From positions 62,842 to 126,841 of IMG/VR virus record IMGVR_UViG_3300045973_000170: a DNA stretch of 64,000 nt. One strand, written 5' to 3'. The stretch's first letter is position 1, and each line of letters starts with the position of its first letter. Source of the DNA: a virus. Its lineage: Duplodnaviria > Heunggongvirae > Uroviricota > Caudoviricetes. Below the pieces are notes generated by a model. That model searched no databases and was not told the origin of the DNA. It saw nothing but the letters and a program-made list of their open reading frames with translations. Both the position numbers and the translations under genes were made by a program. Below are positions 220 to 63,073 of the stretch, one piece after another.

Positions 220-793
220 TCATCATTAGAGCCTCGCATCCAAGAGTTTGAGGAAATAGATAAATGGCCACATCACCACATATCCCATGAGCGTACTCAA
301 TAGCATTGGCTGACCGCATTGCATACGCTTTCGCGCCGCGATAATGACTCCAACGATCAGCCAGCAGTAGACAATGTTCATCGCTTCACTCGCTCTGTGA
401 TGACACAAACATTCTCACTGTGAACTTTCGACACCGTGGCGCGTTTTGGCCAATCCTTGAAGATTCCTTCACGCACAATCGTCAGGACGTAGCGCGTTCG
501 ATCATAGCGCATCGTCTTTTTGATTTCCGTGATTTCCCCTATTGCCACCTGACCAGAGAGGTTGTAAGCCACTCTGGTTCCGGTGGTCAACAGATTACCG
601 AAAGGATCGGTGACGGGCTTCACGGTCTAGCGGAAGACCTTGAGATACGTCTTCTGGTTGGACACGGACGTATCCGTGCGCCAGTTGCCGAAGAAGGACG
701 AGAAGTACTCCAAGCGAAGCCGCTTGCCGTCAGTCACCAGACGATTGGTGAAGCCACCCTTGCGCCACTTTTCCAGTACCACGAAATTCTTCT

Positions 794-12450: not shown

Positions 12451-12882
12451 CTAGATGTTCAAGAAATCGTTGCGTGGATCATCGTCCATTTCATCGGGTG
12501 GCTCATACTCTGGGCCATCATCTTCAGGAAGCTCTGGCTCAATCTTATTGACCAGATAGAATTCCTTGCACTCAGGACACTGAATCAGACTCTTCTTTTC
12601 CTCGTCTGTCCATCCCTCAATGTCCTTGTTCTTTCTTTCTGCTTCCTGTTGCTTTTCCCACCATTCCCAAATGTCCTCAACGTCAGTCACATCGACGCCG
12701 CAACACTGAGTCTCAAAGGTGGAATGTTCGTCAATCCACTCTTGCTCTTCCTGTCGCTCTGCCTCTTCCTGATAGGGGCGTTCAAGCCAGCTATCGTAAC
12801 CAGCCCACGGATCAGAGGCCATAGTTATGCTCTGCGCGAATGCGATTGATGATCTTGAGGTACGCCTGAGTTTTTTTCTCAA
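12451..12882 (-). CDS. acidic hypothetical protein
   Basis: 143-aa ORF, E/D/W-rich. Confidence 0.4.
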   Translation of the reverse strand: MRKKLRRTSRSSIAFAQSITMASDPWAGYDSWLERPYQEEAERQEEQEWIDEHSTFETQCCGVDVTDVEDIWEWWEKQQEAERKNKDIEGWTDEEKKSLIQCPECKEFYLVNKIEPELPEDDGPEYEPPDEMDDDPRNDFLNI

Positions 12883-13010
12883 TTGCTTCGTCTATGGGCT
12901 TTGAACCACCATCACCATACCGATACCAGCCTTCAGCATCCCCCTGTTCTCTTGCACATTCCACAAGATCATCAAGAAGAGCTTCAATTTCTTGAATATA
13001 CGGTTCGATG

Positions 13011-13304
13011 TTACTCACCGTCAAGCTCACAGGTGCAGAAGAGCAACGTGTTACCACACTCGTCGCACATTTCACTGTCCAGTTCATCATCACTGGATTC
13101 AATGTCTTCATACCCGAAGTCCACATCGAAGGACTTGAGCGTGACCACAATCAGGTTGTCATAATCCCCTGACATGGCATTTGCACGGTACTCTTCGATC
13201 TTCTCCTTGCTCCACCCCGCTTTCTTGGCAACAGCGACAGCGCGGCCAATGATAGCAAAGGCATTGCCATCCTCACCTTCCAGCTTCAGTTTCGGCTTGC
13301 TCAT
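13011..13304 (-). CDS. acidic hypothetical protein
   Basis: 97-aa ORF; TTGACA-type promoter 13349-13371. Confidence 0.4.
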   Translation of the reverse strand: MSKPKLKLEGEDGNAFAIIGRAVAVAKKAGWSKEKIEEYRANAMSGDYDNLIVVTLKSFDVDFGYEDIESSDDELDSEMCDECGNTLLFCTCELDGE

Positions 13305-14647: not shown

Positions 14648-15040
14648 TTACTGCGCGTCCGTGGTGACAGGAGCCTCGACAGCAACCGGGGCCGCATCGA
14701 CCTTCGTGACGTTGGAAATCTTCTTGCCCGTGCCAACCGGACGGCCACGCACCGAAGCAACGAAAGCGTTGACCGGAGCCTTGATGTAGCGGTAGTCAGC
14801 CTTGCTCGTACCGTAGCGAGCCTTGACCACACCATCCGTCACGTTGACCACAACCACCCGCGAACCAGCCTTGAGGGGGTGACCAAGCGTATTGCGAACG
14901 GACTGCGTGAGGCGAACCACCTGAAGCGTCTTGAACATTAGAACCTCCTGTGTGAAACGTTGTGTGTTGCTCATGAATCGTACCCTAATCATAACTGCCC
15001 TACTCCTTCCTGTCAAGCCCCTTCTACAACATTCTCTCAT
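14648..15040 (-). CDS. hypothetical protein in GC-rich island (probable start MFKT at ~14940)
   Basis: ORF with ~60 percent GC versus ~45 percent elsewhere; overlapping Arg-rich alternative frame typical of GC-rich DNA. Confidence 0.4.
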   Translation of the reverse strand: MRECCRRGLTGRSRAVMIRVRFMSNTQRFTQEVLMFKTLQVVRLTQSVRNTLGHPLKAGSRVVVVNVTDGVVKARYGTSKADYRYIKAPVNAFVASVRGRPVGTGKKISNVTKVDAAPVAVEAPVTTDAQ

Positions 15041-15296
15041 TTTCTTTTCGTGAGAAAACAGATACTTCTATTGGGGTGAGCAGGGTTATCATCCATGTTG
15101 CCTCATTTAGGGCAATGAGGCTTGGCGGCGATGAACCCGCTGTTCCTCTGACTCACGAAAGGAATAGTAAAGGGTGGGTAATCCCATGTCAAGGGGTAAG
15201 ATGAAATTCTTTCAGGGGGTAATATGCAATGGGTAAATGCCGTAATGCAAAAACCCTACAGCGGGGTGCTGTAGGGTAAAGTCTTAGGAGATTCTC

Positions 15297-32754: not shown

Positions 32755-32776
32755 ATTCTCTCATAGTGTTAAGATC

Positions 32777-32852
32777 ATCGGATGGGATTCGAACCCATGT
32801 AGGCTTACGCCACAGATTAACAGTCTGCCACCTAGCCGCTAGGTTACCGATG
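32777..32852 (-). tRNA. tRNA with anticodon GUU and 13-nt variable arm (atypical)
   Basis: Perfect acceptor TCATCGG/CCGATGA; AC arm GCAGA-CTGTTAA-TCTGT; variable GGCGTAAGCCTAC. Confidence 0.45.
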
Positions 32853-32932
32853 AATGCTTACTTCAAGTGGGCATAGTTGGAATCGAACCAACGTGTCGCC
32901 TCCTATCCTTTCAACGGCTTATCAGACCGAGG
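32851..32932 (-). tRNA. atypical tRNA-like element (no D-arm; anticodon-like loop CTGATAA), paralog of 39194-39270
   Basis: Acceptor GGGCGTA/TATGCCC and T-arm GTTGGTTCGATTCCAAC; conserved 3' half TTGAAAGGATAGGAGGCGACACG. Confidence 0.35.
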
Positions 32933-33130
32933 GAATATACGCCCAAGCTTTTTCTTTTTCTTCTGTAGATTTATGTACTTTACATTTGGATAGAACCAAG
33001 TGCAACCACACTTATTACAACATCCTTCACCAGCAAAATGAGTCTTGCTGACATGTCCACAATCACATTTCACGTTACCGTGTGCCATGATATCTCCATG
33101 TTCAGTGGGGGAAGAGGGAATCGAACCCAC
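32903..33130 (-). CDS. small Cys-rich (zinc-ribbon) protein
   Basis: CDCGH ... CCNKCGC motifs; C-terminal region overlaps tRNA-like element. Confidence 0.3.
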   Translation of the reverse strand: MGSIPSSPTEHGDIMAHGNVKCDCGHVSKTHFAGEGCCNKCGCTWFYPNVKYINLQKKKKKLGRIFPRSDKPLKG

Positions 33131-33194
33131 AACGCCTAATTAAAGAAACAGATTTACAGTCTGGTGTGACCAACCAATAGTCACCTTACCCCCG
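33108..33194 (-). tRNA. tRNA-Tyr(GUA)
   Basis: D-arm GTGACTATTGGTTGGTCAC, loop CTGTAAA, long variable arm. Confidence 0.6.
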
Positions 33195-34242: not shown

Positions 34243-34336
34243 GTTAATGGCGGGTGTGGGAGTCGAACACCACTATCTTGAGGTTATGAGTCTCAAATGA
34301 TTAGGCAATCTTTCGAAAGCCGATCCGTTTCACTCT
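34243..34336 (-). tRNA. tRNA-Met(CAU)-like paralog carrying ~23-nt insertion in D-loop
   Basis: AC arm TTGAG(A)-CTCATAA-(C)CTCAA nearly identical to 34357-34426; extra GGCTTTCGAAAGATTGCC hairpin in D region. Confidence 0.4.
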
Positions 34337-34356
34337 CCCGCTATAGAAGCTCGCCA

Positions 34357-34426
34357 AGGATTCGAACCTTGCTCTTGAGGTTATGAGCCTCAAATGACCC
34401 CGTTCACTTGCCAGCTATGAAAGTAC
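34357..34426 (-). tRNA. tRNA-Met(CAU)
   Basis: AC arm TTGAGG-CTCATAA-CCTCAA, T-arm CAAGGTTCGAATCCTTG. Confidence 0.6.
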
Positions 34427-35355: not shown

Positions 35356-36330
35356 AGAATTTGTGAGGGGTTGAGAATACACCCATCGTGGCTGTCCTTT
35401 CAAGGGATTATGAACCAGTGTCCCCACCGATCTTTCCCCTCTTTTCCACTTCCGCGAGGAAGTTGACAACCGAAGCAGTTCTCTTTAAGGTCTGAACAGT
35501 ATGACCGTCATCTAGTGCTACTCAACCTTTTCTCTACCACCGACCTTGCGAGCCGTTCGGAGTCGCTAAACCCCTATGTGCGAGTCTGGATCGAAGATTG
35601 TCGGGCTTGGGGCCGTTCAATCTGCCCTCTTCCTTGCGGGAAGGCATTATGCCACTTTTGGCACTTAGACCGAGGAAGTCTTTCCTTTTTATATTCTCTT
35701 TATCTCAATTAAAGTGGGCTGTTAACCCTGAATGTGAACTTTGAGTGAAGTGCTTCCTCAGTTGTTCCAATAGCTTTTGGCTATCAGAATGCAACACTCC
35801 ACGGCTACCGTTCGCCTTGCTCTGGCTACTTGATCATGCTTCTGGATTTAGGGCGAAGCTATTGAGAATAGCACTTCGCTCAAACCTCATGACATTCACG
35901 GAAAGCCCTATGGTGCAACCCATCGGACAATCTTGCGTGTATCCGTTACCGATCCGTTTTCGAATAGTTGGTTGTGTGCAGTACCCGACACCACTCGTCA
36001 GTCTTCGTTACTTGCCTTCCCTTGCGGGGGCGTCAGCAACGCTTTCTTCTGCACCTACTCTTCAAACATATCTCCACCTTCTTAGGGATGAAGCGGGGAT
36101 GTTCGAATATCCCCTCAGTCGGACTTGTTTGGATGAACCAACCTTGCGGCTGGCGGGGGTTACAAAGATAAGCCCCTTTATGCACCTTACGATGCACTGC
36201 TCTTTGGGAGTCCAAACACCCCAATTTCCTACTTCTCAATCAGCCTCCACCATGTGGGAGTCCCGTCATCGCCTTGGTAAGCTTTACCTCACCAACTAGC
36301 TGGTAGGTTTCTCCCTCTGTTTCTGAAGGA
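35356..36330 (-). ncRNA. ~1 kb ORF-free structured RNA with co-linear islands of small-subunit rRNA similarity
   Basis: No minus-strand ORF. TTGACA-N17-TAGCTT promoter at 36335-36363. GNRA-type hairpins (CCCGCAAGGG, CGCAAG, CTTCGG). Minus-sense segments match universal 16S blocks in 16S order. Confidence 0.5.
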
Positions 36331-39012: not shown

Positions 39013-39086
39013 TAGCTCTCAGGGGAATCGAACCCCTCTCTACTGACTGAGAATCAGTTGTCCTTTACCGATAGACGAGAAAGCCG
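39013..39086 (-). tRNA. tRNA-Glu(CUC)
   Basis: AC arm ACTGA-TTCTCAG-TCAGT. Confidence 0.55.
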
Positions 39087-39193
39087 TGAGGCAGGGGTTC
39101 AGGTCGCTCCATCCTGAGTAGCCGTTCACCCGTCCGAAGAGGGTTAGCTGTGAAACGGGTTCAGGCACATGGCCCTCAATGCCCCGACCAAGT

Positions 39194-39270
39194 ACGGGTG
39201 GTTGGAATCGAACCAACGTGTCGCCTCCTACCCTTTCAATCGTTTATAAGACGCAGGGGATACACCCGCA
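39194..39270 (-). tRNA. atypical tRNA-like element (no D-arm; anticodon-like loop CTTATAA), paralog of 32851-32932
   Basis: Acceptor GCGGGTG/CACCCGT, T-arm GTTGGTTCGATTCCAAC, conserved 3' half GATTGAAAGGGTAGGAGGCGACACG. Confidence 0.35.
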
Positions 39271-39475
39271 AAATTCACTAATTGATATGAAAGGATGAGG
39301 GAAGCTTACCAAAAGCATCTGCCAACCAAGCCAGCGCACAAACCACCCACACAAACCATACCACTTTCTTTGTATCTGGGATGAAATAGATTACAGCACC
39401 ACCAATGAGCAACACAATCAACAATAGATACAATGTCATTTTTACCTTCTTTGAAGAGGTTGATCGTATTTATAC

Positions 39476-39600: not shown

Positions 39601-39674
39601 TGCACCGCATGGGATTTGAACCCACATCGTGAAGCTTAAGAGGCTCCTGTAATTGCCGTTTATACTAACGGTGC
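39601..39674 (-). tRNA. tRNA-Lys(CUU)
   Basis: AC arm GGAGC-CTCTTAA-GCTTC. Confidence 0.6.
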
Positions 39675-40332: not shown

Positions 40333-40495
40333 AAGATGATCATAAAGAAACTCTACGTTATTGCGACATAGTTTGAGAATTGATGTTGATTCATTGTACT
40401 CCCTTGAGAATGAGTTCGCATTTCTTCTCTCAGGTCTAGCCGAATCTCTCCTATTCTTTAGATCAAATCGTCACGGGAGCTTATCTCCGCAACAG

Positions 40496-40575
40496 TAATC
40501 GCAATGGGGGTCGAACCCATATTAACCCCGCGAAGGGGGCTGTCCTGCCCTTAGACGATGCGTTTCGGCTATACG
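40496..40575 (-). tRNA. tRNA-like, extended D region
   Basis: T-arm ATGGGTTCGACCCCCAT, acceptor AATCGTA/TGCGATT; internal hairpin GCCCC-CTTCGCG-GGGGT. Confidence 0.3.
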
Positions 40576-40742: not shown

Positions 40743-40816
40743 TAGCAGTGACGAGATTCGAACTCGCGTTACTCAGATTGAAGGTCTGGTTTACTAGGCC
40801 ACTATAAGACACTGCC
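40743..40816 (-). tRNA. second tRNA with UUC anticodon (C at position 33)
   Basis: AC arm CAGA-CCTTCAA-TCTG. Confidence 0.45.
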
Positions 40817-61627: not shown

Positions 61628-63073
61628 TTATGCCCTCGCTCTGGCCCTCACTTCGGCATAATCATAGAACATCTTGAACTGCCCATCCTTCCACACAGTC
61701 TTCAACTCAGACTGTTCAAGCTCATCCACCGTGGCCTGATTCTTCAGATAAAGATTACCATCCTTATCCCTGAGAACAGCCAACATACCCTTGGCCGATT
61801 CCTTCATACCATTGTCAGTGATCGGCTTCTTGAACATGTCAATTGGCGTTCCATTGATTTCACAATGGGTGGCCTTCATCGCCATGTTATAGGTGTCACG
61901 GGTGACGTACTGATAGGTGAAGCTACCCATGCCGAAGACCATGTTGGCCGAAGCAAACCCGTTCTCTTCCAACCCCTCAAGGATAGCATTGAGGCGTTCA
62001 ATGTTGATCGAATCGCCGTAGATGCAACCAATGTGGCTGTCCAGAAGCTTGTAACCACGCGAGGTTGTGGTGCCGCCGAAGACTTCCCAAAGCAACTGAA
62101 TGACTCCCTTGTACGCAGGACTCATGTACGGCGCATCCTTGTCACCACAAATGATCTTGACAGGATCGCCAGAGTCAGGACGAATGACCATCTTTCCATT
62201 GCGATTCAGGATTTCCCTCTTCAGCGAAGGAAGAATTTCCGTCAACAGTCTCCACAAGTCCCATGTATCAGAGACATAAGAGAAGATTCCTTCCGGATAC
62301 AAGTCAATCAAACGACTGACCGTTTCCCGTTCCCCACCTTCCCCACCAGCACACACCACTGAATGCTCTGTTGCAGCAACCGATCCCGCAATAAACGTTT
62401 CTGTTGGGTAGTATTCCTCAATCAGGTCGATGGCAGGAATGGTATCGGTACCCGTGAAGAATAACAGGTGACCAGCACCGCTAATCATTGCGGCCTCAAG
62501 CCCCGGCATACCACGGAAGCTGAAGTCATGACCCTGCCAATCCACAAACTCCTTGGGTGAACCCGTGCGCTCTGCGTACTGATCCAGCACACGCCGGAAC
62601 TGTGACGCTGTGGTGGCTGACGTTGTCGGCATCCACAAGACGTTGGACAGAAGGGTTTCAAAGTAGTTGGTAAGCCAAAAGAATTCCGGCACAGTGTTCA
62701 CCACGGTAAACATAGGAACTCTCAAGGGGACATGCGTACCCTCAGGAAGTGCCTTGAATTCCAACGGGAGATACCCAAGGTTGTGCAAGGCGCGAATGTG
62801 ATCGGTACCGATGGTGTTAGGGCCAAGATAGCCGTTCACTCGACGGGCATACTTCTCACAGACCTTCTCTACATTCTGTTCGAAGAACCCCCTATTGAAC
62901 TCTTCCATCAGATACTTCTTGAGAAAGTACTGAAGACCAAAGAACACAACATGAGTCTCACCCTTTACGCGACTTCCACGGGGTGTCAGGTTGCTGTAGA
63001 CGCTTTCTGTACCCTGAGGATACTGGCGTCGGTGATCCAGCTTGTAGCCATCAATTGCGGTAGAAATGTTCAT
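61628..63073 (-). CDS. nadV: nicotinamide phosphoribosyltransferase (NadV/NAMPT); start at MNISTAIDGY
   Basis: MNISTAIDGYKLDHRRQYPQGT N-terminus and overall NAMPT-like length. Confidence 0.7.
   Translation of the reverse strand: MNISTAIDGYKLDHRRQYPQGTESVYSNLTPRGSRVKGETHVVFFGLQYFLKKYLMEEFNRGFFEQNVEKVCEKYARRVNGYLGPNTIGTDHIRALHNLGYLPLEFKALPEGTHVPLRVPMFTVVNTVPEFFWLTNYFETLLSNVLWMPTTSATTASQFRRVLDQYAERTGSPKEFVDWQGHDFSFRGMPGLEAAMISGAGHLLFFTGTDTIPAIDLIEEYYPTETFIAGSVAATEHSVVCAGGEGGERETVSRLIDLYPEGIFSYVSDTWDLWRLLTEILPSLKREILNRNGKMVIRPDSGDPVKIICGDKDAPYMSPAYKGVIQLLWEVFGGTTTSRGYKLLDSHIGCIYGDSINIERLNAILEGLEENGFASANMVFGMGSFTYQYVTRDTYNMAMKATHCEINGTPIDMFKKPITDNGMKESAKGMLAVLRDKDGNLYLKNQATVDELEQSELKTVWKDGQFKMFYDYAEVRARARA

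Follow-up and report, generated by a model that had tools for sequence, protein, structure and literature searches.

Phage-encoded tRNA-Ile and tRNA-Arg genes with a putatively permuted D-domain

Two tRNA-like elements in a phage tRNA array

Two transfer RNA (tRNA)-like elements of 77 nucleotides (nt) were analysed in a 64,000-nt stretch of viral DNA (IMG/VR record IMGVR_UViG_3300045973_000170, positions 62,842 to 126,841), here called the window. Both lie on the minus strand, copy 1 at 32868-32944 and copy 2 at 39193-39269, and they are probably functional tRNA-Ile isoacceptors with a permuted D-domain: judging from the sequences, the canonical segment 10-21, i.e. the 5' strand of the D-stem together with the D-loop, would be encoded 3' of the anticodon arm, with the acceptor, the T-arm and the anticodon loop remaining canonical. 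The codons read would be AUU and AUC for copy 1 (anticodon GAU) and AUA for copy 2 (UAU). The copies belong to a family of tRNA-Ile and tRNA-Arg genes of the same architecture, below called rewired, which may represent a new structural class of tRNA. The computational support consists of the existence of the family, the covariation of its helices and of a Levitt-like pair, identity elements that track the anticodon, and the swapping of canonical and rewired genes at one locus.

The window originates from a T4-like phage whose RNase H is only about 45% identical to those of the nearest cultured relatives. Its minus-strand tRNA array spans approximately 22.4 to 41.9 kb of the window. ARAGORN identified 38 tRNAs for 19 amino acids in the array and none for isoleucine, calling neither copy 1 nor copy 2, and these two are the only tRNAs of the array with an Ile anticodon. 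In the long open reading frames (ORFs) of the window, about 66 of every 1000 codons specify isoleucine. Copy 1, a rewired tRNA-Ile(GAU), is located between tRNA-Tyr (33105-33193) and tRNA-Asn (32773-32853), and copy 2, a rewired tRNA-Ile(UAU), between tRNA-Lys(CUU) (39601-39674) and tRNA-Glu(CUC) (39013-39085).

On the minus strand copy 1 reads GGGCGUA-UAUUCCCU-CGGU-CUGAUAA-GCCG-UUGAAAGGAUAGGAGGCGACAC-GUUGG-UUCGAUU-CCAAC-UAUGCCC-A and copy 2 reads GCGGGUG-UAUCCCCU-(G)CGU-CUUAUAA-ACG(A)-UUGAAAGGGUAGGAGGCGACAC-GUUGG-UUCGAUU-CCAAC-CACCCGU-A. Both have an acceptor stem of 7 base pairs (bp), an 8-nt linker, an Ile anticodon loop of 7 nt with U33 and a purine at 37, a canonical T-arm and the discriminator A. 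Together they make up a direct repeat of 83 nt, 81% identical between the copies (repeat family D8), and the homology ends a few bases beyond the acceptor stems. Positions 31-69 are the same in both except for position 39, and the only difference outside the stems and the anticodon is U11/A39 in copy 1 against C11/G39 in copy 2. The substitutions between the copies are mostly in stems, where they are compensated, and the loops are kept.

The first-pass annotation of this DNA, made from the letters alone, had described two paralogous elements with a near-identical 3' half, a 7-bp acceptor, a linker of about 8 nt and one anticodon-like hairpin (loops CUGAUAA and CUUAUAA), all of which the present analysis confirmed. 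Its span for copy 1, 32851-32932, had to be corrected, as it omits the 5' strand of the acceptor and enters the 3' trailer and tRNA-Asn; for copy 2, placed at 39194-39270, the locus was right and the bounds were off by one base. It had also proposed Infernal with a tRNA model as a check. The Rfam tRNA model (RF00005, gathering score 29) did align both copies over their whole span, with 31.7 bits for copy 1, above that score, and 26.7 bits for copy 2, below it, deleting the D-arm positions and placing an insertion in the variable region. In copy 1 just 4 nt were aligned to the D-arm of the model, which has 15 positions, and an 18-nt insertion was placed before the T-arm; in copy 2 the alignment covered only the acceptor stem and the T-arm, leaving the D-arm and anticodon-arm positions unaligned. 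The loci can thus be regarded as real.

Size and distribution of the family

The first-pass annotation had suggested a search of other phage genomes for the conserved 3' half. Exact and degenerate scans with the 3' motif of the window phage itself (TAGGAGGCGACAC...) found nothing relevant in viral contigs, JGI metagenomes or GTDB genomes, because the GGAGG it contains is not conserved in the family; for cellular genomes the metagenome and GTDB scans are uninformative, as the motif was unrepresentative. The GGAGG proved to be a lineage-specific variant of the D-loop-like segment described below, and the AGGAGG matches were ribosome-binding sites. One chance match fell in a T-arm-bearing sequence of about 105 nt on the G+C-rich metagenome contig Ga0181526_10009537 (L060, approximately 660-770, minus strand), which has an acceptor-like closing helix of 6-7 bp, no recognisable anticodon arm and no ARAGORN call.

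When both loci were instead compared by BLAST with fetched relatives, two further members were found, both with anticodon GAU and both missed by ARAGORN (contigs L068, 12779-12855, and L063, 12611-12686). Conserved in these were UAUNCCCU, which precedes the anticodon hairpin, and UUGAAAGGNUA, which follows it; the GGAGG was not conserved. Degenerate motif patterns then matched 111 contigs of IMG/VR with the first pattern and at least 118 with the second, and combined they place the same architecture in at least about 160 IMG/VR contigs. As a control, a pattern with a spacing of 16 instead of 15 gave 12 matches, none of them tRNA-like.

The motif matches yielded at least 121 unique full-length sequences of 75-78 nt; as for all counts derived from IMG/VR, these are lower bounds and the proportions among them are approximate. 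Isoleucine anticodons were GAU (40 sequences), UAU (36) and CAU (2), the last counted as Ile on the reading that position 34 carries a lysidine. The arginine anticodons were ACG (27), UCU (12), UCG (2) and CCU (2). The second pattern left the anticodon unconstrained, and also with it only Ile and Arg were present among the matches listed. ARAGORN detected 0 of the 121 unique sequences, the window copies included.

Members were also present in cultured phages. An Ile(GAU) member was found by BLAST in 77 records of Streptomyces phages (Samistivirus, cluster BE), several of which have Arg members as well, and three records of Microbacterium phages (among them A3Wally and Zooman) and one uncultured phage of 462 kb also carry a member. 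The cultured Streptomyces phage members adjoin a nucleotidyltransferase gene; in Mildred21 (NC_042008.1) an Ile(GAU) member lies at 73703-73779 and an Arg(ACG) member at approximately 94857-94933. The site is unannotated in all these records except that of phage EGole (MK494112.1, 75265-75341), where it is given as 'tRNA-Leu, codon UUA'. The loop there reads CUGAUAA and the label is almost certainly a mis-call. No BLAST match to the family was found in the PLSDB plasmids or in 5,426 Escherichia coli genomes.

A covariance model (R1) built from an alignment of 62 family sequences gave 83-94 bits for members, including 84.7 for copy 1 and 83.7 for copy 2, and at most 30 bits for canonical tRNAs. 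Also the divergent members which R1 found outside the reach of the patterns all had Ile or Arg anticodons. The view of the first-pass annotation that the pair represents a non-canonical tRNA-shaped RNA family with Ile anticodons was thus borne out, the family extending beyond this phage and including tRNA-Arg.

Long-range helix and covariation

The 5' part of the family consensus consists of the 7-nt acceptor strand, U8 A9 U10 N11 C12 C13 C14 U15 and a 4-bp stem with the 7-nt anticodon loop. The 3' part is U31 U32 G33 A34 A35 A36 G37 G38 N39 U40 A41 R42 N N G G N N A C A Y, followed by the T-arm, the acceptor strand and N73. In this arrangement the sequence patterns point to a D-stem-like helix formed by long-range pairing of positions 10-13 with 37-40, which would enclose the anticodon hairpin.

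The structure was tested on the 62-sequence alignment with the acceptor, 10-13/37-40, C14-G33, the anticodon stem, R42-Y52 and the T-stem as its pairs. Paired cells amounted to 93.6%, against 61.9% in shuffled alignments and 35-45% when the partners were slid, and the covariation score was reached by none of the 500 shuffles. The acceptor, anticodon and T stems covary across the family, whose acceptor branch, like that of the two copies, is 7/5. Within the long-range helix the pair 11-39, whose columns were N in the search patterns, is of Watson-Crick type in all 121 sequences (A-U in 63, C-G in 43, G-C in nine and U-A in six). In divergent members compensatory changes are found also at the pairs fixed by the patterns (G-C at 13-37, U-A at 12-38, and CAG/CUG and CCG/CGG), and in the member at 18219-18293 of contig L062 the helix is a compensatory GCC/GGC. 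U8 and A9 are invariant in the 121 sequences, columns 8-10 being set by the patterns.

In copy 1 the 5' acceptor strand GGGCGUA (positions 1-7; 32938-32944) forms seven of seven pairs with 32869-32875, supported by covariation in the family. U8, A9 and the 5' strand UUCC of the long-range helix (10-13) occupy 32932-32937, and the anticodon hairpin (16-30), with a 4-bp stem whose pairs covary and the loop CUGAUAA, occupies 32915-32929, its anticodon GAU being at 32921-32923. The junction UUGAAA (31-36; 32909-32914) would contribute G33 to a pair with C14 and have A34-A36 bulged; it was fixed by the search patterns, so that its conservation is not independent, and it varies in the divergent members found with the model. 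After it come the 3' strand GGAU of the helix (37-40; 32905-32908), proposed to correspond to canonical 10-13, the putative displaced D-loop-like and variable segment AGGAGGCGACAC (41-52; 32893-32904), the T-arm GUUGG UUCGAUU CCAAC (53-69; 32876-32892), and the 3' acceptor strand (70-76) with the discriminator A at 32868 (together 32868-32875), without an encoded CCA. The corresponding parts of copy 2 are the helix strands UCCC (39257-39260) and GGGU (39230-39233), in which C11-G39 is compensatory to the U11-A39 of copy 1, the anticodon hairpin with the loop CUUAUAA (39240-39254; anticodon UAU at 39246-39248), the segment AGGAGGCGACAC (39218-39229) and the T-arm (39201-39217).

Several other pairings and origins were considered and rejected. 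Pairing of 13-16 with 43-46 (CCUC/GAGG) is energetically poor and the GAGG is not conserved, contig L063 having GACGG; also a 'variable-arm' hairpin of 31-33 with 47-49 is energetically poor and not conserved in sequence. A 5-bp register of 8-12 with 37-41 fits the window copies and is contradicted by the covariation of the family, in which 11 pairs with 39. A Shine-Dalgarno-like role of AGGAGG was discarded as the sequence is not conserved, and descent as a chimera of some other array tRNA as none of those has the 3' segment.

A putative displaced D-loop and identity elements

The segment that follows positions 37-40 is best read, from its sequence pattern, as a displaced D-loop in the position of the variable loop. 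R42 and the base directly preceding the T-stem are A-U in 66 and G-C in 29 of the 121 sequences, a covariation that is the pattern of the Levitt pair R15-Y48, and the GG within 41-52 is nearly invariant. In the proposed mapping positions 10-13 would correspond to canonical 22-25, C14-G33 to 26-44 and U15-U31 to 27-43, and on the 3' side G37-U40 would correspond to G10-N13, A41 to A14, R42 to R15, G45G46 to G18G19 and Y52 to Y48. The signature of the tertiary core (U8, A14, R15-Y48, G18G19) is present in the family but displaced.

This alters what had been said of the D-arm in the first-pass annotation, which regarded U8, A14 and G18G19 as missing and a D-arm as impossible. Both copies do have U8 and A9, as do all 121 family members, and the apparent equivalents of A14 and G18G19 lie 3' of the anticodon arm (A41 and G45G46, with G42 as R15 and C52 as Y48). 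It remains correct that the acceptor and anticodon stems have no D hairpin between them; a D-stem-like helix and a displaced D-loop-like segment appear to take its place. The elements are not 'mini' tRNAs either, and the alternative of a regulatory RNA is one from which the family-wide covariation points away.

The identity elements follow the anticodon. The base after the GG is U in 71 of the 78 Ile members and A in 35 of the 43 Arg members, the discriminator is A in all 78 Ile members, and CCA is encoded in 24 of the 43 Arg members. A20 is the main identity determinant for arginyl-tRNA synthetase (ArgRS), and the Arg-type segment AACUGGAUA is in essence the D-loop of canonical E. coli tRNA-Arg.

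Genomic slots and exchange with canonical genes

Syntenic contigs were obtained through homologues of an HD-domain protein encoded between copies 1 and 2; one relative found through an ATP-grasp protein had no tRNAs. In the slot of copy 2 the relatives hold a canonical cloverleaf tRNA-Ile(UAU) between tRNA-Lys(CUU) and tRNA-Glu(CUC), and in the slot of copy 1 they hold tRNA-Ile(GAU) directly after tRNA-Tyr. As they occupy the same slots as the tRNA-Ile genes of the relatives, copies 1 and 2 can be identified as the Ile genes of the array. The Ile(UAU) gene is still canonical in contig L070, the HD protein of which is 82% identical.

The flanks of contigs L062 and L063 are 97.8-100% identical, and two tRNA loci differ between them. 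The Ile(GAU) locus is canonical in L062 and rewired, with an added ORF of 163 codons, in L063, while the Arg(UCU) locus is of the rewired type in L062 and canonical, beside an HNH gene, in L063. The exchanged intervals are 14875-15130 and 17467-18271 of L062 against 12610-13206 and 15556-16243 of L063. Homing-endonuclease-like genes are present also near the window copies. The rewired genes seem to travel as cassettes that substitute for canonical genes, which would be expected if they do the same job.

Proposed structure and function

The copies would fold so that positions 10-13, acting as canonical 22-25, pair with 37-40, acting as canonical 10-13. The D-stem and the anticodon stem would then form one continuous hairpin of about ten stacked layers, equal in length to the D-stem, position 26 and the anticodon stem together. 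Strand 39-44 of a normal tRNA is stacked directly on 10-13, and the rewiring would turn this quasi-continuous strand into a covalent one. The series A41-R42-..-G45G46-..-A-C-A-Y52 could provide the equivalents of A14, R15, G18G19 and Y48, leaving the U8-A14 and R15-Y48 pairs and the elbow contacts between D-loop and T-loop still possible, and the bulged A34-A36 could replace the base triples of positions 9, 45 and 46. Processing by RNase P, 3' trimming and CCA addition would presumably take place as for the other tRNAs of the array, followed by charging by the isoleucyl-tRNA synthetase (IleRS) of the host and use on the ribosome. That rewired tRNAs could function is supported by the finding that an engineered tRNA without a D-arm is accepted by histidyl-tRNA synthetase, EF-Tu and the ribosome of E. 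coli (PMC11551756).

Some observations weigh against this interpretation. Sequence patterns, and not a demonstrated structure, underlie the three-dimensional mapping. Columns 8-10, 12-15, 31-38 and 40-41 were fixed by the search patterns, which makes their invariance partly circular, and it is a handful of divergent members that tests them. Minimum free energy folding, another check proposed in the first-pass annotation, does not favour the proposed fold; it gave other hairpins, in which the anticodon is buried, with z-scores that were unremarkable, and was uninformative. The anticodon stem of copy 2 is weak, with three Watson-Crick pairs and a G-A mismatch at 16-30 that is found in one of the 121 family sequences only, copy 2 itself, and its acceptor contains a G1-U72 pair. 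A called ORF of 61 codons overlaps the 5' 42 nt of copy 1. Finally, the reasons that can be offered for the restriction to Ile and Arg are guesses.

One such guess is that the architecture lets the tRNAs evade recognition by a factor, of the host or of a phage, directed at the canonical D-arm region of tRNA-Ile and tRNA-Arg. It may be speculated that the two specificities share an antagonist, or that they go back to a single origin followed by remoulding of the anticodon, in which UAU would change to UCU by one substitution, accompanied by U to A at the equivalent of position 20.

Alternative explanations

The elements might be tRNA-shaped decoys or regulators that are not used on the ribosome and retain the acceptor/T minihelix and an Ile or Arg anticodon loop so as to titrate or misdirect a factor of the host (an anticodon nuclease, a toxin that modifies tRNAs or a sensor linked to a synthetase). 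Phage tRNAs counter defences that target tRNAs, and both a non-canonical architecture limited to two amino acid specificities, which fits a specific antagonist, and the rejection of the elements by standard tRNA finders agree with such a role. However, in the window phage they replace the canonical Ile genes instead of accompanying them, and between near-identical genomes they are exchanged for canonical alleles. The complete elbow signature would be unnecessary in a decoy, and the covariation of identity elements with the anticodon (A73 in Ile, the A20 equivalent in Arg), together with the CCA of many Arg members, points to charging. We regard a decoy function as unlikely.

Another reading is that these are truly D-arm-less, flexible adaptors like the animal mitochondrial tRNA-Ser(AGY), the 3' segment being an enlarged variable loop that does not mimic the core. 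It is consistent with the missing D hairpin between the acceptor and anticodon stems, with an anticodon arm for which an extended helix can be drawn, like the one put forward for D-arm-less tRNAs of mitochondria, and with the activity of the engineered D-arm-less tRNA in E. coli (PMC11551756). Yet the 3' segment has the length of a D-loop and the pattern A-R...GG...A...Y, its R-Y pair covaries and the base after the GG is specific to the amino acid, U8 and A9 are invariant, and the length is 75-78 nt against about 60-65 nt. With these features a D-arm-less adaptor is quite improbable.

That the copies are decaying pseudogenes or recombination scars without function in a fast-evolving array, as the other aberrant tRNA-like sequences there (34250-34337, 40495-40565 and the 81-nt tRNA-Asn), the nearby homing-endonuclease genes and the small lineage-specific ORFs abutting both copies might suggest, is hardly credible against the compensated stem substitutions and conserved loops of the two copies, an architecture that about 160 viral contigs and also cultured actinophages have kept, covariation in every helix with 0 of 500 shuffles matching it, and a diversity of acceptor and T stems that argues against one recently spread mobile sequence.

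Weighed against these alternatives, functional tRNA-Ile isoacceptors with a permuted D-domain remain the preferred explanation of the window copies. We lean, with some reserve, also towards the broader proposal that the family is an undescribed topological class of tRNA: natural, widespread, phage-encoded Ile and Arg tRNAs in which a non-cloverleaf fold would rebuild the L-shaped core and be accepted by the synthetases, EF-Tu and ribosomes of bacteria, and which may persist by evading a host defence or phage nuclease directed at the D-arm side of tRNA-Ile and tRNA-Arg.

Other features of the array and its surroundings

Small ORFs lie directly upstream of both copies, with no homologue in the syntenic relatives. 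That of copy 1 (32903-33088, minus strand) encodes a Cys-rich protein of 61 amino acids, its last 14 codons overlapping copy 1, and that of copy 2 (39278-39439, minus strand) a hydrophobic protein of 53 amino acids. The 107-nt spacer between copy 2 and tRNA-Glu (39086-39192, minus strand) is G+C-rich, has a UUCG-capped hairpin and ends in the motifs GCAUUGAGGGCC ... GGAGCGACCUGAAC, which recur 3' of the canonical tRNA-Ile(UAU) in contig L070 (596-715). It had no Rfam match and may be a small structured RNA.

A full-length GOLLD RNA (174.5 bits with Rfam RF02032, gathering score 150) is situated within the array at 35368-35802 on the minus strand, adjoining tRNA-Pro(CGG). At approximately 34250-34337, also on the minus strand, there is a tRNA-like sequence whose loop reads CUCAUAA and which has a T-arm with a bulged stem, an acceptor that is only partly paired (5 bp) and about 37 nt in place of the D-arm; it was called by neither ARAGORN nor Rfam, and it partly duplicates the adjoining tRNA-Met at 34346-34416 (repeat D10). 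An odd tRNA at 40743-40816 (minus strand) scored 49.5 bits with Rfam and was missed by ARAGORN. The sequence at 40495-40565 (minus strand) was labelled 'tRNA-???' by ARAGORN and has a 6-nt anticodon loop, and relatives keep it in the same place (6619-6689 of L062 and others).

The tRNA-Asn(GUU) next to copy 1 (32773-32853, minus strand) is kept in a relative (L079, 86-170), and with lengths of 81-85 nt the two have a variable region unusually long for an Asn tRNA. Relatives also have a tRNA with the anticodon CUA, labelled 'tRNA-Pyl' by ARAGORN, which could be an amber suppressor (L062, 4566-4634; L063, 2452-2520; L066, 1394-1462).

Significance

The architecture was described nowhere in the full-text literature searched, although papers beyond that library may describe it. 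All known bacterial tRNAs were stated in 2024 to be canonical cloverleafs (PMC11551756), and the same is stated in textbooks. If the interpretation is true, the family would represent a new structural solution for the genetic code's adaptor, in which the tertiary core is kept with permuted strand connectivity, and it would reveal how permissive IleRS, ArgRS, RNase P, the CCA-adding enzyme, EF-Tu and the ribosome are. That the family is confined to Ile and Arg would point to a specific selective pressure in the conflict between phage and host over tRNAs. Cultured phage-host pairs exist, which makes the question directly testable, and the genes could serve as a natural scaffold for orthogonal tRNA engineering. 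Because standard tools miss every member, the tRNA counts of at least 77 cultured Streptomyces and three Microbacterium phage records in the phage collection searched are too low.

Comparison with known tRNA classes

With canonical tRNA-Ile and tRNA-Arg (RF00005) the family shares the 7-bp acceptor, the 5-bp T-stem, the GUUCRAnYC loop, a 7-nt anticodon loop with U33 and A37, the discriminator A of Ile, a D-loop-type sequence A-R-Y-U-G-G-(U/A)-N-A, a Levitt-type R-Y pair and the genomic slots. It differs in that the 5' strand of the D-stem and the D-loop would be 3' of the anticodon arm, the D-stem enclosing that arm without a D hairpin. There is also an additional UUGAAA junction, and the anticodon stem consists of four Watson-Crick pairs and a U-U. 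ARAGORN misses all family members and the Rfam scores are near the threshold. It had been suggested that the loci might prove to be parts of longer, canonical class II tRNAs with different boundaries; the acceptor pairing, however, fixes the bounds, no D hairpin was found, and the 3' segment has no self-paired variable arm, as it pairs with 10-13 instead.

A tmRNA (transfer-messenger RNA) tRNA-like domain, which would be accompanied by an mRNA-like domain, pseudoknots and the Ala identity pair G3-U70, was likewise rejected, the only match being a chance one of 7.8 bits to permuted tmRNA and the elements being 77 nt long with an anticodon hairpin. Animal mitochondrial tRNAs that lack a D-arm and the 'mini HisT' (PMC11551756) resemble the phage elements in the missing D hairpin, the three-way junction and the extended anticodon arm. 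They are short, without the elbow of G18G19 and T-loop, whereas the phage elements are of full length and apparently keep a displaced D-loop; the conserved GG-bearing D-loop-like segment and the length of 75-78 nt speak against a D-arm-less tRNA of mitochondrial type. The phage elements are also natural and encoded by bacteriophages, in contrast to the organellar mitochondrial tRNAs and the engineered 'mini HisT'.

The allo-tRNAs (PMC5389517, PMC7609411) are likewise a non-canonical class mined from metagenomes, with a long interval between the anticodon arm and the T-arm, and UAU is a frequent anticodon among them. They keep the D-arm, however, and have a true variable-arm hairpin and a 12-bp acceptor branch of 8/4 or 9/3; with their 7/5 branch the phage elements are not allo-tRNAs.

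Red and green algae have circularly permuted tRNA genes, whose 3' half stands ahead of the 5' half, the mature tRNA becoming canonical on processing. The phage elements share with them a permuted order of segments. Their acceptor ends follow the normal order, however, which sets them apart from the algal type, and the permutation is internal, so that it would be expected to persist in the mature RNA.

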